Assembly: GCA_043228905.1 (NCBI GenBank)
Contig: JBHGNT010000021.1
Coordinates: 2,418,001-2,482,000, forward strand
Length of the DNA stretch: 64,000 nt
DNA from: Azolla caroliniana
Lineage: Eukaryota > Plantae > Polypodiophyta
Direction of reading: 5' to 3'
The translations under genes and the position numbers were made by a program. Under the pieces are notes generated by a model. That model saw nothing but the letters and a program-made list of their open reading frames with translations. It made no database searches and was not told where the DNA came from. Of this stretch, positions 4,510-43,084 are shown in pieces. The first letter of the stretch is position 1; each line of letters opens with the position of its first letter.

Positions 4510-4519
4510 GTGGTCGCCA
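4510..4519 (-). other. Primer-binding site of A1 (TGGCGACCAC, tRNA-Arg-like)
   Basis: Lies 6 nt inside the 5' LTR and is identical in A2 (35380-35389). Matches the recalled 3' end of plant tRNA-Arg (...GUGGUCGCCA) over 10 nt. Confidence 0.65.
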
Positions 4520-4525
4520 AAATAG

Positions 4526-14124: not shown

Positions 14125-14187
14125 TGGAGTATATGATGTTACTACCAAAAACTTGATCAAGAAGGTCAGATAGCTATATAAATATTT

Positions 14188-15939
14188 CTGTAACGACAAA
14201 ATAGCCGCAAACACTCTTTAAATTCATCTGAGAAACACAGAACCTAAGGCTTCCATATCTGTAGACATTGCATAAAACCCTGTTGTTACCACCCCAAAAA
14301 AAGAACGTGATAAAAAACAACAGTTTATCACAAGCAACGGTTTCCATGCATAAAATTGATCAAGGAATGCCTCAAAAATTCTCTATTTTCATTATTAGGA
14401 ATCTTCATCTGTGGATCATAAACCAATTTTACCACAGCAGAAAGAAGTGAAAAAGAACAATTTCCATATTGCACATAAAACTGATCAAAATTCTCTACAT
14501 TCTGACATGAGAACACAGGGCTTGAAGCTCCATATCTTTTCAAGAGCTATGATATGATGATGTAGCCACACCAAAAAGAAATAAAACGAAGGGTTTCCAA
14601 ATTTGAGCTCTCTATTGATTGATTATGAACTGTAATTGGTCTCTTGAAAAGATCTGAAAAAAAACTGGTGGAAAGACTTCAAAGAAAATGAAACACAACC
14701 ATTCAACAGGAAGACAAAAGTAAAACGCACTTCATTCAATTCATAGACTGATCAAGGAATGTCTCAAAATTCCTGCATTAATATGAGGAAATCCAGAACG
14801 TGAATCTTCTTACACATATAAAATCTACGAAGACTTTACCAATAAGTATATAGAAACAAAAGCAAAAAAAAGAAATGTTTCCATACGTACACACCTATCG
14901 ATTGATAACATATATATACACATACATTATGTATCTATATCTTCACTGTAATGGATTTCTTGAGAAGTTGTGATAACAAAGATAACAAGAAATTTTCAAG
15001 AGTTCCGAGGGTTTAAAAACTCTGAAACATTATAAAGAAAGAACCTGAAGCTTCCATATCTTCTCTATCGATGTTAGCATACCAAGAAGAAAGAAATAAA
15101 ACAACAGGTTCCATGCATAAAACACTTTTCACGCACGAAATCTATCGACAGTAGGCTTGTGAAAAGATGGCAAGAAAAACCACATGCATTCCTAGGGGTT
15201 AAACTTGAAGCATTTCCAAATCACGAACTGATCAAGAAATTGCCTACATTCTAATGTGAAAACACAGAATTATCTGAAGCTCTCAAACGAAGAAGAAGAA
15301 GAAGAAGAAGAAGAGTGATCCGAAAAGTAAATTTCATAAGCTGTTCTCTGTGTATACTTAATGGGACGATTACAGTACACAGGAAAAAGCCGAATTCAAA
15401 CCAAAATCAGGAACCTTAAGAAGAAAGAGGAAAGAATAAAATTGTAAATTTATTAGATTTTCGTTGACTGTGGACACGAAAATTCATAAGAAGAAGTTAG
15501 AAGAAATGAATAAAAAAGAAGGAGATTCAAAAGAAGAAGGATGAATGAAAATTCACCAGGTCTTAGCTGGCAGTGGAGACGAAACTGTCAAGAATAAGAA
15601 GAAAGAAGATATGAAGAAATGAATGAGATTTTAACTGTTCTTCAATCGCTGTATAGACAAATTCCAAGGGAATAATAAAGAAAGAAGGATATTTTCACAG
15701 TTTTCCTTGGCTGTGGAAACGAAATTCCATCAGAAGAAAGAAAGAACACGATAAGAAATTTACTGGTTCTATGCAGACTACGGAGACGAAATTCCTAAGA
15801 AAGAAGAATGGAAAATGAATGCAAGTATACCAGTTGTTCGCTGCCTATAGAAACGAAATTCACAAGAAGAAAGGAGAAAGGATGACTTGAATGCGAGAAA
15901 GCAAGAAAGGAGCGGATGATTTGAGGATAAGATTGTTAC
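14188..15939 (-). other. Predicted 5'-UTR intron of the GRAS gene
   Basis: Donor CAG|GTAAC at 15940/15939 and acceptor TTTTGTCGTTACAG| at 14188. The minus strand is T/C-rich. There is no transcript evidence. Confidence 0.5.
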
Positions 15940-21287: not shown

Positions 21288-24200
21288 TCTTGAGAGATCA
21301 AGCTCAACTAGAGTTAGTTAGTTAGTCAACCATGTAACTTCGTAGTTACCAAGATAGAATCTAGTTAGAGGTGTTGACTATAACGCCTTAAATAGGTCCT
21401 TGTACTTAAGTAGGATATTCTAGATCCTCCACTCCCAAGGTCATTTAATATAGGACTTACACGGTGTCACGTTGTTACGCGCGTGCGTGGAGAACAAGGC
21501 GGGACCACCGGGGTCTTGGGCCGAGAAATAGCTGAGAAGGAGGAGAACGGAAAGGCAACGGACGCACTTGCACACGCACAGACACGGGAGCACATAGGAT
21601 CACAGTCCAACAACACAGCAAAACGAGACGACTAGAAGTCCGAGTATATGAACACGTATGTATATATATATATATATATATATCAAGATGGTTACAACTA
21701 ACAAGCCGGCAAGGCGAACACCGCCGCCTATTCACTCACACACAGAAGAGCGAGATGGAGACTCTGTCGGAAGCACATGGGCGTTCCATGGAGCAAAGTC
21801 AGCCTCCCGAAAACCTGCGCAAAAAAATGGCTATGGAGAGTGGCAGAGGAGAAGAGCTCGGTCCCGGTCCGGCTGCACTTCGTCCTCTCTAACGCACGAT
21901 ACCTTTTTCATTCCTCTCCCTCTCTTTTATAGCCCAAGGAGGGAGGTCGTTATCATCCGTTACATCACATTAATTCTCTGTCCTTTCGGACAGGGATACA
22001 CCTCGATTCTCTCCCTATTGAATGCATGCTACCTAGGATTTCACCTTAGCCGACTTGTACCTACCTACTTACCATACAACGAAAAGTGTGATCACGTGTA
22101 AGGGCCGGTTTACACACGCTAAACTCGGTTTCCACCTAGGGACGGTTTTCTTCACGACATCCGCCCCCACCTAACCGCGCATCCACCGTTATGCGCCAAA
22201 ATTGGGCCCTTGCTAGAGAAAACCGGTCCATGCTTTACTCCTCGTCTTCTGGATCGTCATCCGCCTCGGATCGCCCGCCGTCGCCATCCATGCTATCCAG
22301 ATCCGGCTCGCACTCGTGTCGTTTCTTAAACGCTTTGACCCTCTTCCCCACTACCGGTATTGCCATCCTCGTACCGTTGAGCTCCGCAAGATGGTAGGTC
22401 CCGTTGTCGTTGGCGCCTGTCACCACGTAAGGCCCGAACCACCTCCTTGCAAACTTCAGCGTTGCCATGTGCTGGTTGTTGAGGCTGCTATCATACACTA
22501 GGACCCAGTCGCCTTCCTCGATTTTCTTCGGTCACAGTTGGTGAGTCCGGTCAAACCGCCCTTTGTTCTTCAACCTTGCCAACCGAAGCTTCTCCGCGGC
22601 TCGTTCCACGTCCTCCGGCCTTCGCTCGAGCTGTCAAATCCGTGCCGCTAGCAGCTCCTCCCGGCTCATCTCATCTCTCCAGTCCACCGTGGCCCATGAG
22701 GAGATGGTTCGCTCTGTTGGCATGATCGGCCTCTGTCCGTACATAAGCTCTGCCGGCATGAACCCGGTTACCGAACTGTGCGTAGTTCGGTCCGCCTACA
22801 AGGCATAAGGCAGCAGTCGCGGCCAGTTCCCGACTTGGCCTTCACACGCCCGTACTAGCGCTTTGACGATCGGCCCGTGTCCGCGCTCCACCTTCCCGTT
22901 AGCCTCCGGATTGTACGTTGTGGTGAGCGAGAGTTTGACCCCTAGTCGGTCAAACAGCTCTTCAGCCTCTTGCGCGTCCAACTCTCCGCGGTCAGCCACG
23001 ATCTTTCCTATGCTCCCGTACCGACATATCACGTCCTCGATCAGAAACCAGCATACAACCGCGGTCGTTTTGTTCTGCAGCGCTCGGCCTTCAACTTGGT
23101 TCGTCAGATCCTCCCGAGCCAACACTAGATACCGCATCTGTCCTACCCCCATCACCATCGTCACCAAATCCACCATCCATTTGAAGTGGACGGTCGGAGG
23201 GTAGGTCGGGTGAAGTTCATCCCGGTGTCGGACTATGGAATGCATCTGACAGCTTTCACAAGTCATCACGAACCAATGCACGTCCCGGTACAGTCCCGGC
23301 CACCAGTACTTCCCCTTTAACTTCTCGAATGTGGCCCACGTTCCGCGGTGTCCGGCCCAGGAACTCTCGTGGTAGGCCTCCAACAACTCCTCCTATTCCT
23401 CCTTCTTCGCCACCACTCGGAGCAGGATGTCGTCCCTCTTCTTCGGCTGCTCTTCCGGATCTGGTTGGCCTCTTCCTTTGTCCACGCCGCGTCCGGTGTC
23501 ATTGTTTTCAGGAGCCCGCCGATCTAGAGCCACTCCCCGTCATACTTGCTCTCGTCGAATTCGTTAAGCGCCGGAGTGCTCCCCTTTCTGGTTGTCACGT
23601 ATGCCGCCTCGAAGAAATCTACGCCGACTTCCTCGTCCTCCGAAACCATGTCTTCCTCGTTTTCGAACCTCGCCCTTGAGAGCATGTCGGCCATGGCATT
23701 GTCTTTTCCGGAAATGTGTCGTATCTCCGGATTCAGGGACTTGATGTACGCTATCCACCTGAGCATTGCCAGGTCCGGAGTCGCGCATTCGGAAACCATG
23801 CTGAGAGTCGGCAGGCAGTCCGTCTCAATTATTACCTCAGTCCCGATCAGATAGTTTTTATCGGCCTTCACCGCCGAAACGATACCCCAGAGTTCGCGTT
23901 TAACCTGGGCGTATCCTCACTTTCGCTCACTGAGGACCTTCGCGCCGAACCGGATGGGGAACCTCGTGCCAACGCCATCCTCTTGGTTGATCACCCATCC
24001 GATCCCGGTCGGACTCGTGTCTACGGTTACGTAAATCGGAGTGGAGTGTCTTTGCAGTAGACAACCTTTTGGAGCACCGGTGTTGTGGCAAGTGCTTCCT
24101 TCATCTTTCGGACTGACTCCGTATGCTCGTCTCCCCACTCGAATTTACGCCCTTTCTTCAGCAACCCATACAGCGGCTCCGCGACGTGGGCGTAATGCGG

Positions 24201-25588
24201 GATCCAGATATGGTAGAACGCGCATGCTCCCAAGAATCTCTGAACCTCCGTAACCGAATTGCAGTCATGCTTCATCGCGAAGATGGCTTCCACCTTGGCC
24301 GGAGATGGTTTCCAACCGTATGGTCCGCATAGGTGCCCGACGACCATGATCTCTGATTGCCCAAAGGCCGATTTTTCCCCGGAGAAGGTGAGGCTCGCGC
24401 CTTCTAGTCTCTGCAGCACCTTCTCGCAATCATCGATGTGAGTCGCCACGAAATTCCGACATCCGTCCGGTCCGATTGTCTCGTCCTTTTCCTCCACCGG
24501 GCATCCCCTAATCGGGATGTCGTCTAAGAATGGCATGGTGATGTCCGGGATACAATCCCTGAGCACTTTGTTCATCGCGTTCACCATGTGAGCCACCAAG
24601 TTCGTCCCTCCTTGTGGTAGGGTACACATCCGCACTAGGCCGAGAGGAGTCCACATCGTCGTAATGTCTCTGCTCTCCACGACTAGTTGAAACTGATCGT
24701 ACCCCGAGTACAGATCACCGACAGAGTAAACCGACATTCCGGCGAAGGCCTCCGCGAACTCGTCTATGGTCGGTCTGATTCCTGCGTTCCAAATGGTCAT
24801 GTTGTTGACCAGTTGTAGGTCTTGAATAAAATGTAACGTGTCGTTCTTCTTTGGCACGGTAAACCACCGATTCGAGTATGGGGCACTCGACGGTTCGAGG
24901 ATGCCCATCTCGACCTTCTGTTTCAACAGCTCCATCAACTTCGGGATGTGAGCTCTGGGTACCGGAATCAATTTGAGGTTCCACGGCACATTCGGTACCG
25001 TGAAGATCACCATCGGTTACACAATTGTCGGGTCTACGCACCCGACCTCCGGTGAGAAACCGAAAGCCTTCCCGTGCCTCCCGAGCATTCTCGAAAACCG
25101 GTCCTCTTCCGCCAGCAGTAGAAAGCCACCCCCACCGATCTTGAGCTCTCGTAGCATTATATCAGTGAACGTGTGTCCTATGCTGGCCGGACCTCGCAAA
25201 CTCGGGTCCGACGCGCCCCCCTTTACTCGTAACTCGCTGCCCTCCGGCAAGGGTGCCGCTATTGGCCTCACCTTCCGGTCCACAGTCTTGTACTTTGTGT
25301 CCACCCAGGCCGTCCGATCCGACTCGAGCCCGTTACAGAAGTCGGCGATGACTTCATACATCCCTTCCGAACATACCGGAATCGTCCGGTCCTCTTTAAG
25401 GCCTCCTCCGACCACCTCTCGTAACTGTCCCAAGGTGTCGTCGAAAGAGACCGCCTCCACGGCTCCGTTGATTTCCTCTCCAGGGCCGAGGACTCCGCAT
25501 GCCCGAAGTTGCTCCTTCGCCCAACAACGCCGACAATCGTACAACCTCCGCTGTCGGAGAACGAAAATTTCCTACCTATGGTACATGT

Positions 25589-25654
25589 GTGGGGTTCTTC
25601 CAGTACGTCCGGACTACCGCGGCCCCACGCCCTGATAGCCCTCTCTAAAAATCC
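25589..25654 (-). other. Putative -1 ribosomal frameshift cassette of B (G GAT TTT TAG + H-type pseudoknot)
   Basis: Slippery heptamer at 25654-25648 and a 6-nt spacer. Stem 1 is GGGCUAUC/GGUAGUCC and stem 2 is GUGGGG/CCCCAC. Confidence 0.7.
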
Positions 25655-28600
25655 CCTCGGCTGCCGCCGCTGAGGGTCTCGCCATTCCTCTCATGGTTTG
25701 GACGTACGGTCCTGAATTGTACGGAATGCCGACCGTCCTAGCTCTTGACGCGCGCATACACTGAACCGTTGTCCAGCACTTTCGTCTCCATGCGTGTTGC
25801 CGTAATGTATGGCTCGCCGAGAATCACTGGGTGCAAGGATGTTTCATGCACGAAGAAATGTTGATCTATCTTGATGTCACCGACCTTTACGCGTATATTC
25901 GGGCGCGCACCATACAGCTCCTCCATAGCATGTTGTCGAGGTACTCCTCGCGGATGCGTGGAATGAGGCGGGACCTCGGGGTTCTTGTACCGAAGAGCAA
26001 TAGGGAAAGGAGAAGGGAAGGGACCCACTACGTGCGAGCGTAGATCCACAGGGACACGGCCCTTCGACACGAAGACGCCAGCGGGGAAAACAACACAGAG
26101 AGGCACAACGGTATGTAAGTATATATTAACAGAGACAAACAACAAAAGCACGAAGTCGGTTACAACCGAACAGGCCGGTGAACAGATGCCGATGCCTATT
26201 CGCAAACGCTCAGAAAGGAAGGAGTAGGTTGGAGGTGCTGCCGGAAGCACTCGGGCATTCCTCAGAGCAGCGCGAGCCTCACGAAACCTGCACAAAAAGA
26301 AGCTACGGAGAGTATGGAAGAGAGAGAAGCCTTCGACCGACAGCCCGACAGCACTTTGTCCTCTCTCTGATCCCGCCCTCTTCCTCGTCTCCCTCCTTTT
26401 ATAGGCAAGAAGGGAGCCGTTTCCTATTAACTTCCTACCTACCGAATCTACCTACCTAGGATCTTCCATGTCCCTAATTCTCTCTTATGTACAACATAAG
26501 GCGTACGTGCATGAAGAGCCGGTTCCTATGCTCCGGCGCACCGATTCCGCTTGTGGACGGTTTTCTTCACGACATCCGCCCCCACCTAACCGCGCATCCA
26601 CCGGCATGCGCCAAGTTGAGTTGGGACGGAGAAAACCGGTCCAGCCTTCATTCCCCGCCCGTCGGTTCTTCCTCGGTTTCGGATCGTTCGTCGTTCCGGT
26701 CCAAGTTAACCGGATCCGGCTTGTCGTCGTGACGCTTCTTGAACGCTTTGATCCACTTCCCAGCTACTGGTATCGCCATTCTCGTGCCGTCGAGTTCCGC
26801 CAGATGGTACGTCCCGTTGTCGTTGGCGCTTTGTACCACGTAAGGCCCAAACCACCTTCTTGCGAACTTCCGTGTTGCTCGGTGCTGGTTGTCGAGGCTG
26901 CTGTCATAGACTAGCACCCAGTCGCCTTCCTCGATCTTCTTCGGTCGGAACCGGCGCGTCCGGTCGAACCGGGCTTTGTTCCTCGTCCTTGCCACCCGAA
27001 GCTTTCCCGTAGCCTGCTCCACGTCCTCCGGTCTTCGCTCGAGCTGTCATATACGCGCCGCCAACAGTTCCTCCCGGCTCATCTCGTCTCTCCAGTCCAC
27101 GGTTGCCCACGAGGAAATCGTACGTTCCATCGGCATGATCGGCTTCTGCCCAAACATGAGCTCTGCCGGCATGAATCCGGTTACCGAACTGTGCGTAGTT
27201 CGGTCAGCCCACAACGCGTAAGGCAGCAACCGCGGCCAGTTCCCGACTTGCCCCCCGCATGCCCGAACTAACGCCTTGACGATCGGTCCGTGTCCGCGCT
27301 CCACCTTCCCATTCACCTCCGGATTGTACGCAGTGGTAAGCGAGAGCTTGACTCCTAGTCGGTCGAACAGCTCCTCAGCCTCTTCGGCGTCCAACTCCCC
27401 GCGATCAGCCACGATCTTCCCGACGCACCCGTACCGGCATATCACGTCCTCGATCAGGAACCGACATACGGCCGCGGTCGTTTTGTTCTGAAGGGCTCGG
27501 TCTTCCACCTGGTTCGTCAGATCTTCCCGAGCCAGGACCAGATACCGAATCTGTCCTACGCCCATCGGCATCGTCACCAGATCTACCATCCATTTGAAGT
27601 GGATGGTCGGAGGGTACGTAGGGTGAAGCTCGTCCCGATGCCGGACTATGGAGTGCATCTGACAGCTCTCGCAAGTTGTCACGAACCGATGCACGTCCCG
27701 GTACAGTCCCGGCCACCAGTACTTCCCCTTTATCTTCTCGAACGTGGCCCACGTTCCTCAGTGTCCAGCCCAAGGGTTGTCGTGGTAGGCCGTCAGCAGC
27801 TCCTCCTGTTCTTCCTTCATCGCCACCACCTGGAGCGGGACGCCGTTCCTCTTCTTCGGGTGCTTCCATAGGTATCCGTCCCGGAGAAAGAATCGGTATG
27901 CTTTCTTCCGAATCCGATTGGCCTCGTCTCTCGTCCATGACGCATCCGGCGTCATTGTCCTCAAGAAACCACCGATCTGCAGCCACTCGCCGTCATACTT
28001 GCTCTCGTCGAAGCCGTTAAGTGCCGGAGTGCTCGTCCCATCGGTCGTCAGTACGCCGCCTCGAAGAAGTCCATGCCGACTTCTTCGTCCTCCAAAACCA
28101 TGCCGCCCTCGTCATCAAACCTCGCCCTCGAAAGCATGTCGGCCATGGCGTTGTCCTATTCGGAAATGTGCCGTATTTCCGGGTCCAGGGACTTGATGTA
28201 CGATATCCACCTGAGCATCGCCAGGTCCGGTGTCGCGCATCCGAAAACCATGCCGAGAATCGGCAGGCAATCCGTCTCGATAATCACTTCTGTCCCGATC
28301 AGGTAGTCTTTGTCGGCCTTTACTGCCGAAACGATACCCTAGAGTTCGCGTTTAACCTGGGCGTACCCTCGTTGTCGCTCACTGAGGACCTTCGCGCCGA
28401 ATCGGATCGGGAACCGAATGCCGTCCTCATCTTCTTGGTTGACGACCCATCCGATCCCGGTCGGACTCGTATCTACCGTTATGTATACCGGGGTACCCTT
28501 TTCGTAGACAGCCTTCCGGAGCGCCGGTGCTACCGCAAGAGCTTCCTTCAGCTTCCGGACCAACTCCGTGTGCTTGTCTCGCCACTCGAATTTTCGCCCT

Positions 28601-30085
28601 TTCTTCAGCAACTCGTATAGCGGCTCCGCAACGTGGGCGTAATGCGGGATCCATATGTGGTAGAATGCACATGCCCCCAGGAACCTCCGAACTTTCGTAA
28701 CCGAGCTACAGTCGGTCATCATCGCGGAGATGGCTTCTACCTTTGCCGGAGACGGTTTCCGGCCATATGGTCCACATAGGTGTCCGACCACCAGGATTTC
28801 TGATTTCCCGAAGGCCGATTTCTCCCCGGAGAAGGTGAGCCTCGCATCCTCTAGCCTTTGTAGCACCTTCTCGCAGTCGTCGATGTGTGTCGCCACGAAT
28901 CGCCGGCATCCGTCTGGTCCGAGTGTTGCGTCCTTCTCTTCCACCGGGCACCCCTTGATCGGGATGTTGTCTAGAAATGGCATGGTGATGTCCGGGATGC
29001 AATCCCTCAGTACCTTGTTCATTGCATTCACCATGTGGGCCACCGAGTTGGTCCCTCCTTGTGGCAGGGTACACATTCGCACTAGGCCGAGGGGGGGTTC
29101 GCATCGTCGTAATGTCTCTGCTCTCCACGGCTAGCTTGAACTGGTCGTACCCCGAGTACAGATCACCGACCGAGTAAATCGACCTTCCGGCGAAGGCCTC
29201 CGCGAACTCCTCTATGGTCGGTCTGATTCCTGCGTTCCGAATGGTCACTCTGTTGACCGGCTGCAGGTCTTGAATGAAGCGCAATGTTCCGTTTTTCTTT
29301 GGTACGGTAAACCATCGGTTCGAGTATGGGGCACTTGACGGTTCGAGAATGCCCATATCGATTTTCTGCCTCAATAGCTCCATCAACTTCGGGATGTGAG
29401 CTCTCGATACTGGAATCGGCTTGAGATTCCACGGCACATGCAGTACCGTGAATATCACCATCGGCTCCACGATTGTCGGGTCTACGCACCCGATCTCTTC
29501 CGGTGAGAATGCGAAGGCTTTCCCGTGCCTTCCGAGCATTCTCCGAAACCGGTCTTCTTCCGCCGGTAGTAGGAACCCGCCCCCACCGATTTTGAGCTCC
29601 CGGAGCGTCCCGTCGGTGAAGGTGTGTCCTATGCAGACCGGATCTCGTAAACTGGGGTCCGACGCAACCCCTCTGATTCGGGACTCGCTGCCCTCCGGTA
29701 AGGGTGCCGCGACTGGCCTTACCTTCCGGTCCACAGTCTTGTACTTCGTGCTAACTCGGGCCGTCCGATCCGACCGGAGCCCCTGACAGAAGTTCGCGAT
29801 GACTTCGTACATCTCTTCGGAACATACCGGTATCGTCCGGTCTTCGTTAAGGTCTTCTCCGGCTACCTTCCTCAGCATCCCCAAGGTGTCGTCGAAGGAA
29901 ACCGCCTCCACGGCCCCGCTGATTTTCTCGTCCGGGCCGAGAACTCCGCACGCTCGAAGTCGCTCCTCCGCCCTTGCCCTTTCTCGGCCAACGATGCCGA
30001 CTATCATACACCCTCCGTTGTTGGAGAAGCAGAATTTTCTACCTATTTTACAAGGTTTCTTCGGTTTCGGTTCTATCGTACAGCT

Positions 30086-30151
30086 GTGGGGTCTTTCCCG
30101 AGTGTCCGGACTGTCTCGGCCCCACGCCTTGGCAGCCCTCTCTAAAAATCC
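30086..30151 (-). other. Putative -1 ribosomal frameshift cassette of C (G GAT TTT TAG + H-type pseudoknot)
   Basis: The Gag-PR ORF stops at 30142. The -1 frame is open from the slippery site directly into RT ORF 28706-30007. Stem 1 is GGGCUG/CAGUCC and stem 2 is GUGGGG/CCCCAC. Confidence 0.75.
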
Positions 30152-32313
30152 TCTCGGTTCTCGCCACCGAGGGATTCACGGATTCGCTCGTGGTTCGGCC
30201 GCACCGTCAGAAATTGGACCGAATGGCGCCCGTCCTGGCTCTTGACCCTCGCGTAGGCCGAACCGTTGTCCAGCACTTTGGTCTCCATTCTCGCCGCTGT
30301 GATGTATGGTTCCCCTAATATGACCGGATGCGAGGACGTCTCCTGCACGAAGAAGTGTTGGTCAATCTCGACGTCGTCGATCTTGACACGCACATTCGGG
30401 CAGGCCCCGTGCAGTTCCTCGGTGGCGCGCGTCGCCGCCCGTATCTTCCACCCGTGCTTGGTGTTGATCGGCCATTTTCCCCTTTTGTAGAAGTCCATGG
30501 ACATCAGGTTTATTTCCGAACCGTGGTCCACCAGTGCCACCACCGGTTCCTGAACATCTCCGATCTTTACCGGGGTCTCCGTGGTCGCTCGGGCCCAGTG
30601 CGGCCTCGAATAGTGGCTCTCCGCCCACTCACCTTCCAGCGCCAAGTCGTCGATGTGCGTCGTCCGCACCTCCACCGGTCTTTCCGGTTCCGTCTCCGTC
30701 GACAGCCTCTTCCGTTTTACCAAGTCCACAATGGAGTCGTGGAACTCCTTCTTGGCGATCCCTAGCACCTCCCGCAATGACAGCTCCACCTTGCTGTCGA
30801 GGATCCGTTCTTCTAGGACCTTTCGTAGGTCCGTGGTCCTTTCTATTTCCGTCCCCAGTCGGTATCCGCCCTTCTTGGGGTTATCTTGCGCGCTGGACCC
30901 ACCGGCTTCGTTCCGTTGTTGCCCGAATCGAGTCTCGTATCGTTGTGAGGGCCCAGCCGCTCCGGCTTTCCCCACTCGTTTGTCTTCTACCAGAGCCTCG
31001 TAGTTCCAGCAGGCGGCTTCTACGAAGCCTGTCTTCTCCTCGACCGGATCGCTCCACCCGGTTATTTCCCGGACCCGTCTCTCAGCGCGGTCCGTTTCAT
31101 CTTTCCTTAGTCGTGCGTTGCCGACCAAAATCCGTCTTTGCCCTCCTTTCGGGCCTTGCTGCCCCCGACCCGAATGCCGGCCAACGCCGAGTAGTGGATG
31201 ACCTCCACGTGTCGGACCGCTGCCTCTTCCATCAGTCTCTTCATACCTCCCCGCCCGTCGTTTCGGTTTAGGGCCCTTCTGGTGTCGCCGGCGTGCACCC
31301 GGCCTTCCCACAGGTACACCACCCGGTTCCTCAACGCTTCTGCGAAATCGCCGCAGTCCTTCCGGATGTGGCCGACCTCGTCGCACCACATGCACTTGTT
31401 CCCTGCTGCCGGTCGTCGGTCACAAGCCGGTTCGCCGCCTTCCCTTCGAATCTGGGAGATCTGGAGATCCTTTATCGCCCGCATCAACTCCTCCAGCGCT
31501 GCTCCTCCGGATGAGCCATTGACCATGCCGGTCGAAGCCGAACCGGTTTCGAGCCACTCCCGGGTCTCTTCCCTTCGCCCTTGCGGTGCCGGGTCAAGCC
31601 TCCTTGCTATGACCGAGCCCGCACCGGCCGCCCCATTATCAGCCCATTCTCGCCGTTTGTCGAAACGGCCACAGACTCTCTTAACCGCAGCCCAGTCGGT
31701 CGTCAACCCGTCTTCGGTTTCCAGCAAGGAGCCGACTTGATCCCGGTCCCGCTCGTCCACCGACTTGACGAACAGTAGGACCCGGCTCGTATCCAGAATG
31801 GTTCGGTCAAGCGCCGAAAGGCGCGCAAAGCGTTCCTCAAACTCCTGGAGGAGCGCCGACGCGTTTCTTCCCTTGCTGGGGGACTCCACCCATTCCATGA
31901 AGTCCCGTTTCGAAAGCCGGAGCGCGTCGTCTGTTGTCTGTCTGGCCAAACTAGCCTCAACACAGGTGTCTACCCAACACTTCTCCAAAGGGGTGGTAAG
32001 GATTGGATGCTAGGTTACACGCATAAGATGATTACAATTAAGCACGGACGGCAACCAATACGAAATACAGATAAATACACAATAATTACTCTTGTATTAC
32101 TTCCGTCAAAACACTTTACAAATCATCGGATCCTTTTATAGGCATCTGGCAAGGTTACAATCGGTGCGCTTAGGCAACCGACATCCGAATCGGTTCGGAT
32201 CCGGATCGGTACAACTATACCGAATCCGTCCCTCCGAATAATAATTCTACTATTACTTCCTATTATCCGATCCGCCTTCCCACTTGTCCTTGCTCTTTTG
32301 ACCGGCCAACACA

Positions 32314-32329
32314 TGGCACGCCCGTGGGA
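32314..32329 (+). other. Second PBS-like site (TGGCACGCCCGTGGGA, tRNA-Arg-UCU-like) occupying the PPT position of A2
   Basis: Lies 2 nt inside the 3' LTR on the antisense strand, and no purine tract is adjacent to this LTR. Resembles the recalled Tat-type PBS TGGCACGCCCGGTGGGA with one G missing. Confidence 0.6.
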
Positions 32330-32361
32330 AAGTGCCTTGCACTTCGAATCCACACCCGGCC

Positions 32362-34581
32362 TCAGTCTTCCTCCAAAATATTGAGCACACTTTGCTCGAT
32401 AGTGTCAAGTGGTGCTTCTTCCTCCTGTTCCTGTTCCTTGCCTGCCTGGTCTCCGACCTCCTGTTGGGTAGGCTGTTCCGTAAAAAATTTCTGCTCGGGC
32501 TCTGCTTGATTCCGTGGTGCCGGTGCTTCCTCACCGCTTCGTCCGGGTTCTTCCTGTTCTCCCTCCGTTCCTGGCTCTGTTATGTTACCGGTGTCGCTTT
32601 CTCCGGTCTCGACTGGTCGACTTGATATGCCTCCTTCCTCTGCTCTAGTGTCTTCCGGTCTCAGCTCTTCTTCTTCTCCGGCATCGGTCCGCTCCTGCTC
32701 TTCTTCAAGTTCGTCTTCAGGTATTCCTCGTCGGGGTTGTTCGGGGTCGGTTGGTTCATCTTCATCCGGTCGCGTTCCCTCACCAATAGTGGTTGGCGTC
32801 GTTCTTTCCTTAGCTTCCTGTCGTAACCGGTCCTGCTCGTATCTCTCCAACTCCAACTGAGTTGCGAGCTGCCCGTCATCCAACCTCTCTACCAACCCTC
32901 GGATTTCTTTGAGGTGTTCTTCTGCTAAAGTGTAGAAATCCTCCGACAATTCCTCCCGAATGGTGACGATACTTTCTTCATCCATCTTATAGAACCTGTC
33001 ACCGGTCTTCTTCCGATTCTCGGCATCCGCTCGGAGTGTCTGCAGCTCGGCTGCCTGTTGTGACCACTCCTTCCATAGCTTTTCTGTACTTTCGTTGATA
33101 CTTGCCTGAGCTCGGGTACTCCATCCTGACATGATGAGCTTGATCCGGTCAACTCCTGCCTTAGCATGCGCATAAGCTTCCTACTTTTCCTTCCTTGCCC
33201 GTTTTATAATGTCGGCCATTATCTGAGCCTGGGCCTCGTAATCTGCTTTCTGCTTTTCATAGGTACTCTGCAGTTTGCTGATCGTGAAGGTCGATTTTTC
33301 CTTTTCTTCATTCCTGATCTTGGTCAGGTCCAGCTTTTCCCGCCTTAGCGCCTCTAATTCCTTCCTTCTCTCCGTTGCTTGGGCTATTTCCGCCGACAAT
33401 GCTTCCTTGCTAGCACTGACCTCATCCATCGCCTTAGCCAGGTCTAATCGGGTCTCTTTGAGCTGCTCTTTCAGCTTCTCTATTTGCCGGTCGTAGTCTG
33501 CTGCTCGTTTTTTGTTGTCCGACTCGGCCTGCTTGTGATCTCGGTAGAGACGGTCGAAGTCCTCCGTCTTCTGCTTCAGGCGTCGGGTTGCCTGAGCTCT
33601 TAACCGATCGTCCCGGTCCTTCTGTTGTCGGAGTTCTTCCTGCAGTCGTTCTATCTCTTGTTCGGCATGTCGACGTAGTCGGTCCTTCTCCTTCTGCAGC
33701 TTCTCTTTTTCTTCTTGCAGTCGGTCATTAGCGGCTCGACCTTTCCGGAGGCCTTCTTCCATTTTTCGTCTGTCATCCTCCACCGCTTTCCGCTGCTCCC
33801 TTTCTCTTTCCCTTAATGCCTCCTGAGCTTGTAACTCCTCTCGTAAGGTTTCTATTATTTTTTCGGTCTCAGGGCCGGTTTGCAAGGCTACCGGTTCCGG
33901 TTCCGATTCTGGTTGCTTCCTTGTTGTCCCGACCGGCTCGGTGACAGCTTGTGCTTGTTGAATTCCTTCCCTTGCCTGCAACAGCTCCCCTTGCATTTCC
34001 TCGATCTGTGTTCGGAGCGCGACCAACTCCTGAGTTGTTGTATGCGTCAGCTGTTGCCGACACGTTTCTTCTTTCTTTAACTGGTCTGCTACTCCCGATA
34101 ACTGCTCCGAAAGCCATCTCAGCCATTGTGGCTTTGTTCTTCCGATTTCGGGGTGGCCTTGCTCACTTAAGCCAGGCTGATTTTCCGGCCTCTTCTCTGG
34201 CTCCGGCTCCGGCGCTCGTTCCTTCTTCTTCTCTGGGATGACCGGTTTTCTGAAGTCCGGCCCAACCGGTGTCGGTGCTGCTTCCCTGGGTACGGGTTCC
34301 GGTGTTGTTTCCGCCTCGGCTACTGGAGATGGTCCTTGCGCCCTCTGCTGAGTTCTGTCCACTGGTGGAGCCGGTCCTTTCGCCCGTTTCTCCCGACCTT
34401 GTCTTGCTGGGAGTCTTACCAGTGGTTCGGATGAGTCTTCTGTTTCAGTTTCCTCCTCCGGTGCGGGTACCAGATGGACCTTTTGTCTAGAGACCTCTGG
34501 TTCCGGTTCCGGCCGTCGCAGCGTTATATGGATTGGTTTGCACGCTACCGGTTCCTCCTCGGCCGCTTTCCCTTTGCTCAA
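32362..34581 (-). pseudogene. Extra 3' ORF of family A, about 740 aa (Pro/Glu-rich N-terminus, long coiled coil, acidic tail), one in-frame TAG at 33181-33183
   Basis: ORFs 33181-34581 and 32362-33132 are in frame with 16 sense codons between them. E/K/R/Q-rich heptads and no hydrophobic segment. Confidence 0.75.
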
Positions 34582-36120
34582 ATTGTCTGTGAAAAAACCT
34601 GAGGAATCTGGCCTTCAAGGCATCGAATGTGGCAAAGGTGCCTGGCAAGTGCTTTGCGTGCCATTGGGCCGCCGGTCCTTCTAAGGTTATGCCGAATTCG
34701 GAGATTTTGGATCGTTCGGCTTCAGGCTCCGTCAGTCTTTGGGAGATATGGTTGGCTTCCCATGTTTGGAGGAATGCGTACACGTGTGCCTCCGCGTCGG
34801 CCTCATCCCGGTACTTTGGGTATGGGTACGGCATCGTGTCGTCCAACTGACTCTCCTGTTCCCTCCGTTCTCTGTCCGTTGTTGGCGTTGGTGTGAGAAC
34901 CTTTGGTTCCTCCGCGGGTGTTGCCGGTGTCCGGTCCGTTGGTTCCTCCGCGGGTGTTGTCGGAATCCGCTCCTTCGGTTCCCTCGCGGTTGTTGTCGGT
35001 ATCCGGTCAGCCTTCCTCGGCGGTTGCCGGTCACCGAATTCCAGGGTTATTTCTTCCTCTGGCGCCGGTGTTACTGAGTCTTCCGACCCCTCGTCCTCCC
35101 GGTCGTTTGGTGTGTCGTGGCTGCTTTTATACCGGGATGCAACGCTTCCGTCGCTTTCCGACTCCGCCTCAAGTGTTGCGAATGCTTCCGAGTCCCCGTC
35201 GCCCGCGGCGAGCGTCTGCAGTATCGTTTCCGCCTCTTGCAGGCTTGTTATGCTACTGCCTTCGTCGGGGATTTGCAGAACCCGGAACTGTAGTGCTTCT
35301 TCTGCGACTCTCCAAAGAGTTTTGGAGAATGACCGATCCCGCCGGATCTCGTCGACGGCTTGCTGCAGGGCATCCCGTCGTGGTCGCCAAAATAGTGTTG
35401 TCTGTTTGGCCGGACTAGCCTCAACACAGGTGTCTACCCGACACTTCTCCAAAGGGGTGGTAAGGATTGGATGCTAGGTTACACGCATAAGATGATTACA
35501 ATTAAGCACGGACGGCAACCAATACGAAATACAGATAAATACACAATAATTACTCTTGTATTACTTCCGTCAAAACACTTTACAAATCATCGGATCCTTT
35601 TATAGGCATCCGGCAAGGTTACAATCGGTGCGCTTAGGCAACCGACATCCGAATCGGTTCGGATCCGGATCGGTACAACTGTACCGAATCCGTCCCTCCG
35701 AATAATAATTCTACTATTACTTCCTATTATCCGATCCGCCTTCCCACTTGTCCTTGCTCTTTTGACCGGCCAACATCGTCCAGCCCATATTTTTCTAGGA
35801 GTCGGCCCTCGAACTCCTCCCAGGTATGGCTCTCCGCCCGTACCTCGAGCACCTCCGCATGGATGCTCGGCATCGCCACTCGAGGGAACCCGGCAAGACG
35901 CCTCTCTTCCAGAATGTCCTGCATCAGCATTTCTGCCCTGTAGGACGCCAAATACTTCGTGGCATCCTTTCCGCTGAACCGGCCGATCGTACCGACAACC
36001 GCCTCAATGGCTCTGTTGAGGGCGCCGGAGCCCTTGCGTGCGCTCAATATCCGATCCACGGCCGAAGCCATGGCCTCCGCAAGATCCGACCCTTTCATCT
36101 TCTACTCTTCTGCCGCCTCC

Positions 36121-36138
36121 TTCACGTCGGGTTCACCA
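36121..36138 (-). other. tRNA-Trp primer-binding site of C (TGGTGAACCCGACGTGAA)
   Basis: 18-nt complement of the recalled plant tRNA-Trp 3' end UUCACGUCGGGUUCACCA, 3 nt from the LTR. Variants occur in B (about 38635-38652) and D (about 5962-5979). Confidence 0.85.
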
Positions 36139-38860
36139 AGATGTCGAGGTACTCCTCGCGGATGCGTGGAATGAGGCGGGACCTCGGGGGTCTTGTACCG
36201 AAGAGCAATAGGGAAAGGAGAAGGGAAGGGACCCACTACGTGCGAGCGTAGATCCACAGGGACACGGCCCTTCGACACGAAGACGCCAGCGGGGAAAACA
36301 ACACAGAGAGGCACAACGGTATGTAAGTATATATTAACAGAGACAAACAACAAAAGCACGAAGTCGGTTACAACCGAACAGGCCGGCGAACAGATGTCGA
36401 TGCCTATTCGCAAACGCTCAGAAAGGAAAGAGTAGGTTGGAGGTGCTGTCGGAAGCACTCGGGCATTCCTCAGAGCAGCGCGAGCCTCACAAAACCTGCA
36501 CAAAAAGAAGCTACGGAGAGTATGGAAGAGAGAGAAGCCTTCGACCGACAGCCCGACAGCACTTCGTCCTCTCTCTGATCCCGCCCTCTTCCTCGTCTCC
36601 CTCCTTTTATAGGCAAGAAGGGAGTCGTTTCCTATTAACTTCCTACCTACCGAATCTACCTACCTAGGATCTTCCATGTCCCTACTTCTCTCTTATGTAC
36701 AACATAAGGCGTACGTGCATGAAGAGCCGGTTCCTATGCTCCGGCGCACCGATTCCGCTCGTGGACGGTTTTCTTCACGACAACGCGTCGATGCCCGTAT
36801 TTTCCAGCCATGTTTGGTGTTGATCGGCCATTTCCCCTTTTTGTAGAAGTCCATGGACATCAAGTTGAATTATGAACCGTGGTCCACCAACGCCACCACC
36901 GGCTCCTGGACATCTCCGATCTTAACAGGGGTCTCCGTGGTCGTTCTGGCCCAGTGCGGCCTCGAATAGTGGCTCTCCGCCAACTCGTCTTCTAGCGCCA
37001 TGTCCTCTATGTGCGTCATTCGCACTTCCACCGGCTTCTCCGGCTCTGGCTCTGTCGACAGCCTCTTCCTCTTCACCAAGTCTACGATGGAGTCGTGGAA
37101 CTCCTTGGCGATCCCGAGCACTTCCCTCAGCGACAGCTCCACTTTGTTGTCGAGGATACGTTCCTCCAGGACCTTTCGCAGGTCTGTGGTCCTTTCAATT
37201 TCCGTGCTCAACCGGTACCCAGCCTTCTTGGCTTTATCCGGTGCGCCGGTCGCACCAGCCTCATTCTACCTTTGACCGAACCGGGTCTCGTACCATTGCA
37301 AGGGCCCGACCCCTCTGGTTTTACCTACTCGCTTGTCTTCCACCAAAGCCTCGTAGTTCTGGCATGCGACTTCAACGAAGCCCGTCTTCTCTTCGACCGG
37401 GTCACTCCACCCGGTTACCTCCCGGACCCGTTTTTCCGTGTGGTCCGCTTCTTCTTTCCTTAGTCGTGCACCGGCGAGGCCTTCCAGCATCAGCGGCCAG
37501 AATCCGGCTTCGTTCGTCTTCCGGGCCTCACCACCTCCAACCCGGATCCTAGCCGACACCAAGTAGTGGACGGTCTCCGTGTGGCGAGCCGCCGCTTCTT
37601 CCATTAGCCGTTTCATACCCCCTCGTCCGACATTCAAGTCCAGGGCCCTTCGGGTCTCGCTAGCATGAACCCGACCGTTCCATAGGTACACCATGTTGGC
37701 TCTCATTGCCTCGGCGAAGTCCTACCAGACGTGGCCGACCGCGTCGCACCACAAACACCGGTTTCCAGCCAGAGGCCTTCCGTCACGGGCCTATTTGCCG
37801 CCGTCCCTCCGTACCTGTGCAATCTGGAGGTCCTTTACCATCCTAGTTAGCTCCTCTAGAGTTGCTCCTCCGGACGAGCCTTTGACCATGCCGGTCGAAG
37901 TCGATCCGGTCTCGAGCCAGTCTCGGGTCTCTTCCCTTCGCGCTGGCGGGGTTGGCTCGAGTTTCCTTGCTGCTACAGAGCCCGCCCCTGTTGATCCTTT
38001 ATCGACCCACTCTCGCCGTTTGTCGAAACGGCCACAGACTCTCTTCACCCCGGCCCAATTGGCTGTCAGCCCGTCATCAATCTCCAGAAGGAGACCCACT
38101 TGCTCCCGATCCCTTGCATCCACCGACTTAACGAACAGCAGGATGCGACTTGTGTCTAGTACGATCCAGTCGAGCGCCGAAAGACGTGCAAAGCATTCTT
38201 CAAACTCCCGGAGGAGCACTGACGCGTTTCTCCCCTTTTTGGGGGTCTCTACCCATTCCATGAAGTCCCGCTTCGAGAGCCGAAGCGCGTCATCAAGCCC
38301 GTATTTTTCAAGGAGCCGACCTTCAAACTCTTCCCAAGTCTGGCTCTCAGCCTGTACCTCGAGCACCTCCGCATGGATGCCCAGCATCGCCACCCGAGGT
38401 AATCCGGTCAGTCGCCTTTCTTCCAGAATGTCTCTCATTACCATCTCGGCCCGGTAGGCCTCCAAATAACTCGTGGCGTCCTTCCCACTGAACCGTCCTA
38501 TCGTGCCGACGACCACTTCAATAGCCCTATCGAGGGCGCCTGCGCCTTCACGCGCACTCACTATCCGATCCACAGCCAAAGCCATGGCTTCCGCAAGATC
38601 CGACCCCCTCATCTTCCTATTCCTCTGCTGCCTGTTCACGTCGGGTTCACCTAATATGTCGCGTTGTTACGAGCGTGCGTGGAGAACGAGGCGGGACCAC
38701 CGGGGTCTTAGACCGAGAAATAGCTGAGAAGGAGGAGAACGGAAAGGCAACGGACGCACTTGCACACGCACAGACACGGGAGCACACAGGAATCACAGTC
38801 CAACAACACAGCAAAATGAGACGACTAGAAGTCCGAGTATATGAACACATATGTATATAA

Positions 38861-38898
<38 letters not shown>

Positions 38899-39803
38899 AC
38901 GGTTACAACTAACAAGCCGGCAAGGCGAACACCGCTGTGTGTTCACTCACACACAGAAGAGCGAGATGGAGACTCTGCCGGAAGCACACAGGCGTTCCAC
39001 TGAGCAAAGTCAACCTCCCGAAAACCTGCGCAAAAAAATGGCTATGGAGAGTGGCAGAGGAGAAGAGCTCGGTCCCAGTCCAGCAGCACTTCATCCTCTC
39101 TAGCGCGCAATACCTTTTTCATTCCTCTCCCTCTCTTTTATAGCCCAAGGAGGGAGGTCGTTATCATTCGTTACATCACATTAATTCTCTGTCCTTTCGG
39201 ACAGGGATACACCTCGATTCTCTCCCTATTGAATGCATGCTACCTAGGATTTCACCTCAGCCGACTTGTACCTACCTACTTACCATACAACAAAAAGTGT
39301 GATCGCGTGTAAAGGTCAGTTTACACACGCTAAACTCGATTTCCGCCTAGGGACGGTTTTCTTCACGACAACGGTTGTACCTATATTCTCCTCACACATG
39401 TACACCCTTGCACATGAGATCTATATATACCTCATTGATGGTATTTTTGTATCTGATGATGCTTTCTAATATAGTTACTCATCCCCCATCTTGTGTTGCA
39501 ACTTGCTCATAAGTGTAGTTCTCTCTCTCTCTTCCTCTCACACACATACACACACATATCACTTAATCTTCCGCTTAACTTAATCACATAATTAGGTACT
39601 AATTAACCCGTAGTTAATCACCTAATTCTTAACATGGTATCAGAGTGTGTGGTTTAGCCCATTCGACTCTTCATAATTGTGTGTTCGAAACGCCGACGAC
39701 GAATTCCGGCTATCCGCTACCGTAGTGCCATTACGTAGCACGAGTAAGTGATTGAGCGAAGGAAATCGAAAAAGGAAGACACTACATTAAAATTAACACA
39801 CAA

Positions 39804-42490
39804 ATGGGTAGCTCGCTCCCTAGTGAAAAGCTAGACCGGAGCAATTATTCATCTTGGGAGTACAAGATGACTCAATACCCTGTCGGCCAAGGGTATTGGA
39901 GCTACATCAACGGCGCTCAAGAAATTCGACCCGATTCAAAGAACGCCGACTACGCAATATGGGAGCAAGTGGCGAGTCGAGTCATGTATTGCTTGGCAAC
40001 ATGTGTCCACGACCACATGCTTAGCCACATTCGAGACGCTAAGACACCTAAAGAAGCGTGGGCGAACTTAAAGAAAATGTTCACCGCCAACACAACCGCC
40101 CGAAAGCTTCATCTCCAACAAGAGTTGAACAACATTCGGCAAAAAGACATGTCCGTGTCGGAGTACACCGACAAGATTAAGAGCATTTGCGACTCGCTTG
40201 GCTCCATCAACATAATCGTCGACGAAGACGAGATGGTTCGAGTATGCTTGGGCGGCCTCACACAACGATTCGACTCGTTGAGGACGGCAATCTTGGCAAT
40301 GGAAAACCCTCCTTCATTCTTCGACCTTCAATCAATGCTAATGGTTGAAGAGAACCACGTCCAAACCAAAACCAAGAGATCGGAAGGACAAATGTTCTTC
40401 TCGAATTCGGATGGTGGCCAGGAACGAAGTCGAGGCGGTAGAAGAGGTCAATTCGACCCATCGAACGAAGGGAACTCAAACCTTCGACAACAAGATGGAA
40501 GCCATCGAGGAACCTTCGGAAGAAGGGGGAGCTTCCATGTCGAAAAAGGTCAACAAACGTGACCCATAACTTGCAATTGTTGCGGCAAATTTGGTCACCG
40601 CAAAGAGGAGTGTCGGAAAAAGAGAAGTGAGTCGGCTTTGACAAGCCGACAACTCGCAAACTACGCCAACAACTCCGAATACGAAGACTACGGTGGTCTA
40701 TTCGTAACGAGACATAGAGCGAACTCTATGACCGTGTCCAACTCCGCAAGCACCTCCAATTCGGAACATGTGTGGTTCGTCGATTCCGGCGCCTCACATC
40801 ACATGACATCTCACGAAGAGTCGTTTAGTGATTTACGCACACCCCGTCGACCCGGCATCATAGAGACAAGTGATGACACCACACATCTGATTCGGCTCAT
40901 TGGCAACGACGGCCAAAACAATTGCATCAAGAATGTCTTGCATGTGCCCACAATAACGAAGAATTTGGTCTCGGTCGGCCAAATCGTGGAGCAAGGCATG
41001 TAAGTTCGTTTAAACAATGAAGGTTGTTTCATCGAGAAAGATGGCTGACTCATAGCCAAGGGACGGAGAAACGGTTGAATGTTCATCCTCGATTCAAACG
41101 AGGTGAAATCAGCCATGTATGCCAAAGGTCTCAAAACCAAAACAAACATCGAGTTGTGGCACAAAAGAATCTGCCACATAAACCTCCAACAACTTCGAGC
41201 GATGCAAACCAAGGGAGTCGTCATCGGACTTTCGACATTCAAGTCGAAACGAGTCGACCGTGTATGCGAAGCGTGTCAACTCAGCAAACAACATCAACTC
41301 CCATTCCCGAAGGAGAGCTACACGAGCAAAGGCCTCCTCGACATCATACATTCAGATGTATGGGGACCGGCTCAAACGCCGACGATCGGCAGATGCCGAT
41401 ACTACGTAACCTTCATCAACGACTACTCCCGCTACACGTGGATCTTTCCGATGAAGAAGAAGAGCGAAGTGGTCTCCCACTTCCAAAAGCTCAAGGGCCA
41501 AGTGGAGAAAGAAACTGGTCAGCACATTCGATGCCTACGATCGGACAGAAAAAAGGAGTACTTCTCCGATGAATTCACCTCCTACCTCCAAAGTGAAGGC
41601 ATTCGTAGAGAATTCTCGTGCCGACACACACCCCAACAAAATGGAGTAGCCGAAAGGAAGAATCAGCAAATACTCAAGGTAGCACGCGCCATGATGCATG
41701 AGAAGCACATGCCGAACTTCTATTGGGACGAAGCGGCATCCCCGGCTATCTATCTCATGAATCGATGCACCACCAACGGAGTGCGTGAGGTAACTCTATA
41801 TGAGCTCCTCGTCGGAAGGAAGCTGATCCTGTCACACCTCAAGGTGTTCGGAAGCATTGCGAATGTACGCATCCCGAACGAACAACAACAAAAGCCCAAC
41901 GTGAAGTCGGAGGAATGTATCCTCGTAGGATACTCATCCGAGAAGAAGGCATACAAGTGCCTCAACCCCTTGACCCGACCGGTTCGGATAAGTCAGGATG
42001 TAGACTTCGACGAATCGGCATCTTGGTATAAGCCCGATTCGGCTCCACCCAACCCGACTAAGGAAGAGTTGAACGTCAACTCGGAGGAAGGTATTCGGAC
42101 AAGTCCTCTACCAAAGGATAACCCAAGCCCACCCGAGCCTTCAAGCCTTCCAAGCACGTCACGGCTAAGTACGACCTTGGACAAAGGCAAAGGTAAGATG
42201 CCCGAATACGAAGTCGATCACCCCGACTACAGTGATTTGTATGTGTCGGCTCCCTCACTAGACAATGAATTTGGTGTACCCATCATGTAGACACCCGGAG
42301 TAAAGAAGACGCTCACATCGGCGAGCGAAAAACTTCGACGCTCTTCTAGAGAGAAGAATATCGTCACTTGGCTCGGCTACAACAAGTACATGGCCCATCA
42401 TTATGCCTTTGCAATGAAGGTAGCGGCCAAACAAGAGCCCGAGAGCTCTATGGAAGTGGCTCGTGACCCACGATGGGTGAAAGCAGTCGA
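39804..42490 (+). pseudogene. Copia gag-protease-integrase; RT/RNase H deleted
   Basis: NYSSWEYKM gag, CNCCGKFGHRKEEC, WFVDSGASHHM, LWHKRICH, HSDVWGP and PQQNGVAERKN. The EPES...DPRWVKAV motif that precedes RT is followed within about 160 bp by the PPT and LTR. Confidence 0.92.
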
Positions 42491-43084
42491 TCCAAGCCTT
42501 CGTCACAGGCTTGAGGGGGAGGAACCTAAACTGCCACGACATAGAAGCCGACACCGAAAGTCGCACAAAAGCCGACATTGAAAGCCGGACAACGACGAAA
42601 ACAAAACCGGATGTCGGACGCCTCACACTTGAGCTTGAGGGGGGGGGCGTGTTGAGAGATCAAGCTCAACTAGAGTTAGTTAGTTAGTCAACCATGTAAC
42701 TCCGTAGTTACCTAGATAGAATCTAGTTAGAAGTGTTGACTATAACGCCTTAAATAGGACCTTGTACTTAAGTAGGATATTCTAGATCCTCCACTCCCAA
42801 GGTCATTTAATATAGAACTTACACGGTTGTACCTATATTCTCCTCAAACATGTGCACCCTTGCATATCAGATCTATGTATACCTCATTGATGGTATTTTT
42901 GTGTCTGATGATGCTTTCTAATATAGTTACTCATCCCCCATCTTGTGTTGTAACTTGCTCATAAGTGTAGTTCTCTCTCTCTTCCTCTCACACACATACA
43001 CACACATATCACTTAATCTTCCGCTTAACTTAATCACATAGTTAGGTACTAATTAACCTTTATTTAATCACATAATTCTTAACA

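Follow-up and report, generated by a model that had tools for sequence, protein, structure and literature searches.

Ogre and Retand, plant Ty3/gypsy retrotransposons of the Tat clade, encode Gag and protease (PR) in a first open reading frame (ORF) and reverse transcriptase (RT), RNase H (RH) and integrase (IN) in a second. In REXdb this organisation is entered as GAG-PROT:_:RT-RH-INT for 35% of Ogre and GAG-PROT:s:RT-RH-INT for 49% of Retand, the ORFs being separated by an intron of ~274 bp in the former and by a single in-frame stop codon in the latter (PMC6317226). The REXdb table gives no plant gypsy lineage the organisation GAG-PROT:o:RT-RH-INT, overlapping frames being entered only between GAG and PROT (Tcn1, Selgy), and for Phygy, a clade called Physcomitrella-specific, the ORF organisation is listed as ND (PMC6317226). 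A 2016 review, in the part that cites a 2003 survey, mentions plant elements with +1 arrangements only (PMC5009743). Here we describe a stretch of 64,000 nt from Azolla caroliniana (GenBank assembly GCA_043228905.1, contig JBHGNT010000021.1, positions 2,418,001 to 2,482,000, forward strand; hereafter the window) holding two nested, apparently Phygy-like elements, B and C. In these elements Gag-PR and RT-RH-IN lie in overlapping frames that are very probably joined by programmed -1 ribosomal frameshifting (PRF) at the heptamer G_GAU_UUU, stimulated by a downstream pseudoknot.

The alpharetrovirus Rous sarcoma virus (RSV) is primed by tRNA-Trp, the priming also found here, and its heptamer is A_AAU_UUA, differing from G_GAU_UUU in the present elements. 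RSV likewise has Gag and protease in one frame and reaches pol by a -1 shift at a pseudoknot (PMC1224870, PMC5009743), and a first-pass annotation of this DNA was right to call a Gag-Pro/Pol junction the alpharetrovirus arrangement. The present elements differ from RSV in having no env and a plant Ty3/gypsy RT; the shared 0/-1 pattern is convergence, not kinship. Skipper, a chromovirus of Dictyostelium, is said to have a frame change between pro and pol. Its ORF2 has been described as PR-RT-RH-IN (PMC5006619). The umbra-, diantho- and luteoviruses use G_GAU_UUU on plant ribosomes with a stop codon close behind and a structure ~6 nt downstream, as here, and the annotation had correctly named this heptamer as the dianthovirus slippery site; their structure is a bulged stem-loop that pairs with a site ~4 kb away, whereas the pseudoknot found here is local (PMC5009743). 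With a stem 1 of 11-12 bp it is nearer to the long-stem frameshift pseudoknots of the infectious bronchitis virus (IBV) type (PMC5009743).

B and C belong to a minus-strand nest of long terminal repeat (LTR) elements in which C lies inside the protease gene of B and element D inside gag of C; B in turn lies within a copia element, in its 5' LTR, the nest thus having four levels (copia > B > C > D; Table 1). Both junctions read G GAT TTT TAG AGA with the stems next, exactly as the annotation had it for the shared stop. In C the protease-containing ORF ends NREDF at the TAG. The -1 frame enters RT without a stop, as had also been reported, its ORF having 489 codons, with a frame break near 29095. 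The 10-mer GGATTTTTAG has exact matches in the window at the two junctions (25645-25654 and 30142-30151, minus strand) and is not rare alone, with four matches at one mismatch allowed against 6.6 expected. Both copies are decayed away from the junction: C splits the protease of B, which also carries an in-frame stop ~30 codons upstream of the shift site, and the -1 frame of B loses register ~50 codons downstream.

According to the proposed mechanism, one frame would yield Gag and protease, and a second frame that overlaps it would yield RT-RNase H-integrase. The majority of ribosomes would stop at the codon directly after the heptamer and release Gag-PR of ~700-890 aa. The pseudoknot would stall the remaining few, the tRNA-Asp/tRNA-Phe pair would slip to GGA UUU, and these ribosomes would continue to make Gag-PR-Pol with the junction ...D-F-L-E-R-A. 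We infer both the slip and its efficiency from the sequence.

The relation between the two frames was determined in other copies. The genome (523 Mb) was screened with the junction DNA of C and with that of B, which yielded 2236 and 2132 first-look candidates, respectively; 40 were scored for each. At 60 genomic loci picked for likeness to the junction, two of them the window's own copies, the phase of pol relative to PR is -1 in 53, +1 in 7 and in frame in 0, and most of the +1 loci visibly carry indels downstream of an intact site. The heptamer is conserved in 57/60 and the TAG in 58/60. Modal distances in 20 full copies of C assign frame 0 to the gag ATG, the zinc knuckle and PR (gag start 9/15 scored, zinc knuckle 12/16, protease 17/17) and frame -1 to RT, RH and IN (RT 16/18, RNase H 13/18, integrase core 7/15); the value for the integrase core, whose modal distance is still -1, is low because indels build up with distance. 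To avoid selection on the junction, 80 metagenome loci were retrieved by protease protein alone, 76 from one series of assemblies and four from elsewhere. Of these, 22 were not scorable; among the other 58, 55 are -1, three are +1 and none is in frame. The continuous PR-RT frame that the annotation had suggested looking for was therefore seen at 0/60 genomic and 0/58 scorable metagenome loci. Two further families in the genome have both frames fully open, with 710 + 1154 aa in 2/4 copies and 771 + 1149-1151 aa in 3/4, the copies having been taken from matches with long open Gag-PR frames. Additionally, 68 of 116 long protein homologues hold a marker motif at most 60 residues from the end, and 61 of the 68 stop at the site: 50 end in D, N or G followed by F, and 11 end five residues later.

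A zero-frame shifty heptamer is present in all 29 aligned -1 families (GGAUUUU in 24, GGAUUUC in 2, GGGUUUU in 2 and GGUUUUC in 1). It is of the X_XXY_YYZ type known from canonical -1 PRF and lies inside the overlap of the frames; G_GA is an accepted variant of XXX in such heptamers (PMC5009743). The stop codon adjoins the heptamer in 24 of the 29 families and lies 3 or 15 nt further on in five, and its type (TAG, TAA or TGA) varies among families. In some families the -1 frame is blocked as near as 10 nt upstream of the stop, and a shift would therefore be confined to the heptamer. The spacer is TAGAGA in both B and C, as the annotation had noted, and its 6 nt fall within the 5-9 nt at which a canonical stimulatory structure is expected, here one with covarying stems.

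Downstream of the site, 31 junctions with a median identity of 51% align without gaps. Stem 1 spans 31 nt in all 31 families (12 positions, a 7-nt loop and 12 positions); the loop carries the 5' arm of stem 2, and stem 1 of B and C contains an internal loop. The stem 1 hexamers proposed in the annotation, GGGCUA/UAGUCC in B and GGGCUG/CAGUCC in C, are present, as is stem 2, GUGGGG/CCCCAC, the same in both elements, but stem 1 comprises 12 positions instead of 6 bp, and comparison of the families showed that its upper part takes up the 6 nt that had been supposed to link the two stems. The geometry is a stem 1 of 11-12 bp, a loop 1 of 1 nt, a stem 2 of 5-8 bp, no inter-stem loop and a loop 3 of ~13-17 nt. 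In stem 1, 83.9% of the cells are paired, against 25-40% in slid registers, and double changes occur at 10/12 pairs (54 cells versus 21 in shuffles; 0/500 shuffles). Kin inflate counts of double changes, and hence 15 disjoint sister pairs were hand-picked from the protease tree with L163 omitted. Pairing was kept in 6/10 double changes in these pairs versus 2/48 in slid registers, the four failures all falling at positions 9-11, in the upper internal loop. Stem 2 arms pair with their own partner at -11.2 kcal/mol and with the partners of other families at -9.2 kcal/mol (0/20000 permutations), and there are clear swaps between families (GCGAGA/UCUCGC, GAGGGU/ACCCUC and CAAGG/CCUUG). The covariation that the annotation had proposed to test across family copies thus holds over 31 junctions and in tree-independent sister pairs, and it supports an H-type pseudoknot 6 nt downstream, the tertiary fold of which is predicted from the pairing. 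A search of Rfam over 29950-30300 gave no match at E<=5.

The first-pass annotation did not include a sister family with pol in the +1/-2 frame, which is added by the present analysis. In L147 and L161 the Gag-PR ORF ends QVFD and QVFY, respectively, and the two form one clade (100/100) among the -1 families in a midpoint-rooted protease-side tree of 30 rows that omits window B. The L147 family is abundant in the genome (729 first-look candidates); 17/19 scorable loci are +1, and the other two carry downstream indels. Twelve full copies were selected for open Gag-PR, the loci and the copy counts each coming from one non-overlapping set. An open pol of 1154-1155 codons follows from the -2 frame in 9/12 of these copies, the -1 frame stops after two codons in 12/12, and LTR identity is up to 100%. 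The site reads CAG GUU UUU in the zero frame with a 5-nt spacer, versus 6 nt in the -1 families; a perfect 12-bp stem 1 starts 5 nt downstream of the site (z -5.3) and the pseudoknot is kept. A +1 phase was also seen in L173 and was attributed to a downstream indel.

It is probable, judging from these frames, that the sister clade reaches pol by a -2 slip at AG_GUU_UUU. The site is identical to RG_GUU_UUU, the -2 shift motif of arterivirus nsp2TF (PMC5644247). Arteriviruses need nsp1beta/poly(C)-binding protein (PCBP) on a C-rich motif 10 nt downstream and no RNA structure (PMC5644247), whereas in the sister clade a pseudoknot begins at 5 nt and the corresponding position has no C-rich motif. 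Spacers 1-2 nt shorter favour -2 slips, as found for spacer-dependent slippage on U6A in an engineered construct, and the sister-clade spacer is one base shorter, the direction expected (PMC3458567). A +1 shift with tRNA-Phe on UUU_G or UUU_U leads to the identical frame and is a rather unlikely route for this clade, with three points in its favour: P-site re-pairing after -2 (GUU to AGG) is poor, -2 slippage on U6A was abolished by a change of the first base (U) (PMC3458567), and plant viruses have UUU-based +1 sites (PMC5644247). Re-pairing of the A-site UUU, however, is perfect at -2 in both member families and only 2/3 at +1 in one of them, the known +1 context UUU_CGN is absent from the site, and a -2 slip leaves F-x-x-R spaced as in a -1 family and pol, at 1154 codons, as long as in that family. 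In this clade, then, the pseudoknot persists while the U run has shifted one base against the Gag frame and the spacer is cut to 5 nt; pol is likely reached by a -2 slip at AG_GUU_UUU, the -1 frame being closed. We lean, with some reserve, towards the wider reading that one conserved pseudoknot drives protease/pol frameshifting in a lineage of retrotransposons from non-seed land plants and that one recently active clade was retuned from -1 to -2 by the slide of the U run and the change from a 6- to a 5-nt spacer.

Several observations weigh against pseudoknot-driven frameshifting. Stem 2 is weak in L110, L112 and L174 (shuffle p 0.4-0.8), where the stem-loop alone may suffice. The 92-nt regions of B and C, folded as nested structures, score no better than shuffles (z -0.15 and -0.20), and in the minimum-energy nested fold of C an alternative helix and stem 2 are preferred to stem 1, with a folding program that cannot represent pseudoknots. 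The 31 families are not 31 hosts, since most of the metagenome loci (76/80) share one assembly series. RNA contigs of five runs at two junctions were DNA-like or missed the site, and so bear on neither expression nor splicing. A Met 20-25 codons upstream of the KYK motif, from which Pol could be initiated internally, is common but not universal. Finally, in twelve long gene models, the named ones from Riccia sorocarpa, PR continues into pol through links of 39-156 aa. The alternative helix of C (CCGAG/CUCGG) was not counted as conserved, being out of register in B.

The gene-model joins, found in Riccia and Physcomitrium, bear on the possibility that Pol is made by splicing, either by an Ogre-like intron that fuses PR to RT or from a sub-genomic RNA with a UUUUUAG acceptor. 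Ogre splices at the corresponding position (PMC6317226), and UUUUUAG|A of B and C resembles an acceptor as CAG|GUUUUU of the sister family resembles a donor. The first-pass annotation had asked for an intron to be looked for, and at the DNA level none is supported. The linker between the site and the KYK motif was compared in 30 families, one of which was set aside because it has a stop; among the rest, the pol frame is always open (29/29) and the other two frames never (0/29). Its length of 121-156 codons takes 15 different values that change by whole codons only, and differences are mostly third-position in 10/10 pairs. This is unlike an intron and unlike the Ogre-type split. The AG of UAG is present in only 10/31 junctions; elsewhere the codon is UAA, UGA or a sense codon, and outside stem 1 the 31 junctions share no fixed AG or GU close to the site. 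The first Met in the linker falls anywhere from codon 3 to 111; together with the AG count, this means that the linker holds no conserved splice or start signal. The gene-model joins fall at many different points and, as read from the models and not from DNA, are likely predicted introns that bridge the frameshift, which would mean false splices at this site in gene models of moss and liverwort. Splicing is therefore considered very unlikely. The models that join protease to the pol linker at varying points include P0071, P0077, P0157, P0185 and P0186 (Physcomitrium) and P0181-P0227 (Riccia).

Separate translation of Pol by re-initiation or internal initiation, the structure then serving initiation, packaging or dimerisation, is slighter still in probability. 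The frequent Met before the KYK motif fits it, as does the palindrome GUCCGGAC at the base of stem 1 in B and C. The palindrome, however, is not retained in distant families, and separate translation leaves unexplained the in-frame heptamer at a fixed 6 nt, the conserved trans-frame peptide G-F-x-x-R, the ~100 open codons before the Met and the scatter of the first Met. A free Pol would also have no Gag handle for packaging. Decay spread from a dead master copy, which the other breaks in B and C might recall, has a negligible chance of being correct, as the identical break occurs in 31 families down to 50-60% protein identity and in copies with LTRs up to 100% identical, both ORFs open and a covarying structure.

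The frameshifting reading places protease in the first product, and the domains agree with this. In open copies, Pfam confines protease-like matches to ORF1 and those for RT, RNase H and integrase to ORF2. The last 150 residues of the C ORF have weak aspartyl-protease matches in Pfam (17/35 members), and an AlphaFold model of the C-terminal domain of ORF1 (mean predicted local distance difference test score 61.5) matches Ddi1 and retroviral proteases (best E 2.5e-06); a sequence search of PDB with the protease gave no match. The weak Pfam matches and the fold search identify the domain as a predicted retropepsin-like protease. The active-site motif is D-H-G-S throughout the lineage (window ~30515-30530, minus strand, and homologues), whereas the usual motif is D-T/S-G.

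The elements have the LTRs, primer binding site (PBS), polypurine tract (PPT) and domain order Gag-PR-RT-RH-IN of Ty3/gypsy retrotransposons. The PBS TGGTGAACCCGACGTGA follows the 5' LTR and is complementary to tRNA-Trp; 5/5 tested genomic loci that hold the complementary motif are tRNA-Trp(CCA) genes. This tRNA 3' motif has 61 genome matches, many tandem-clustered at ~0.9-1.3 kb (G000 C8:17796786-17823371, C16:4989495-5105657 and C5:10105608-10112201 are among the match places), the five confirmed genes being dispersed. In a survey of 60 copies, all 19 target duplications found are 4 bp of the form NCGN; in 10 copies the duplication did not match, and 31 were without a PBS, an LTR pair or ends. 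The flanks of C differ at two bases. Two open pol ORFs searched against Pfam at E<=0.1 gave one RNase H region and no chromo family, that is, no chromodomain and no extra archaeal RNase H. Full copies have only two ORFs of at least 300 aa, with pol ending beside the PPT and no env ORF. Phygy as described by Neumann et al. (2019) shares the tRNA-Trp PBS, the 4-bp NCGN duplication, the lack of a chromodomain and the short internal region (PMC6317226), whereas Ogre and Retand differ in their extra archaeal RNase H and 5-bp duplications (PMC6317226). Because of the PBS, the duplications and the absence of a chromodomain or second RNase H, B and C are assigned as decayed nested copies of probable Phygy-like elements. 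The C family measures 6.6-7.1 kb and the sister families 7.4-8.4 kb, the Phygy range being 7.7-10.0 kb. Physcomitrium homologues are 49-57% identical over the protease region and have a kindred tail (..KDFGEVPL before the stop) and linker peptide; named homologues also come from Adiantum and Riccia, beyond the Physcomitrella-specific range published for Phygy.

The first-pass annotation thought it unusual for a plant gypsy lineage that Gag and PR should be made together with only RT-RH-IN down-regulated, a view that the Ogre and Retand percentages in REXdb contradict (PMC6317226). The split itself is common in plants, and what looks new is the frameshift mechanism at it, apparently undescribed there; no description of this recoding signal for plant retrotransposons was found in the open-access literature. 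It would supply an expression strategy for Phygy and a third solution to the Gag-Pro|Pol ratio in plant non-chromoviruses, beside the Ogre intron and the Retand stop codon. Because the 2016 review, in that part, knew only +1 plant arrangements (PMC5009743), a -1 site driven by a pseudoknot on RNA that the host encodes would add a new class of recoding to plant genomes. The 31 natural variants can serve as a structure-function series, and the sister pair of -1 and -2 families offers a direct test of whether a one-base change of spacer sets the size of the slip. If the -2 slip is true, a mobile element would depend on a natural -2 frameshift that RNA structure stimulates on eukaryotic ribosomes, and the mRNA-tension model would have an evolutionary test.

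Table 1. Positions of the nested elements and of the junction features (window numbering unless a locus is named).
Feature	Position	Strand	Remarks
Copia element	21290-21465, 39371-39636, 42652-43086		B in its 5' LTR; gag 39756-40562; integrase 41079-42290
Element B	21465-39370	-	LTRs 38657-39370 (5') and 21465-22159 (3'), 92% identical; target duplication ACGG
Element B, coding parts	36784-38656; 22160-25933	-	Gag-PR 5' part; PR end and pol
Element B, heptamer and UAG stop	25645-25654	-	G_GAU_UUU at 25654-25648
Element B, predicted pseudoknot	25589-25641	-	Stem 1 25641-25630 with 25622-25611; stem 2 25628-25623 with 25594-25589
Element C	25934-36782	-	LTRs 36142-36782 (5') and 25934-26574 (3'), 98.4% identical; in protease of B
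Element C, primer site	~36122-36139	-	tRNA-Trp complement, immediately inside 5' LTR
Element C, Gag-PR ORF, 3' part	30142-31419	-	DUF4100 region and predicted retropepsin-fold protease (LVDHGS motif)
Element C, -1 frame ORF	28706-30175	-	~135-codon linker, pre-RT region, RT start; frame break near 29095
Element C, remaining pol (RT, RNase H, integrase)	26575-29130	-	Stops and frame breaks; PPT adjoins 3' LTR
Element C, putative slippery heptamer G_GAU_UUU	30145-30151	-	In Gag-PR frame
Element C, UAG stop of Gag-PR ORF	30142-30144	-	First half of 6-nt spacer 30139-30144
Element C, stem 1	30108-30138	-	5' arm 30138-30127; 3' arm 30119-30108; 7-nt loop 30126-30120
Element C, stem 2 5' arm GUGGGG	30125-30120	-	Within 7-nt loop of stem 1
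Element C, stem 2 3' arm CCCCAC	30086-30091	-	After 16-nt loop
Young sister family copies	L271-L282 (for example L274:1883-7553)		With L147 and L161

Element D (31932-35775) has 380-bp LTRs that are 98.4% identical, a 5-bp duplication TCGTC and no pol. Its ORFs (33181-34614 and 32362-33180) are long and coiled-coil-like with no Pfam match, and a tRNA-like 3' end lies at 32312-32360, the position where a PPT is expected. A D-related element is present at 1337-5134; its Gag ORF (2410-3657) overlaps a protease ORF (1337-2524) that is in another frame, which could be a gag/pro frameshift or decay. The window also contains an intronless GRAS-domain gene with an ORF of 721 aa (12052-14217, minus strand) and tandem repeats at 46474-47188 (~180 bp, four times) and 52719-53120 (201 bp, twice).

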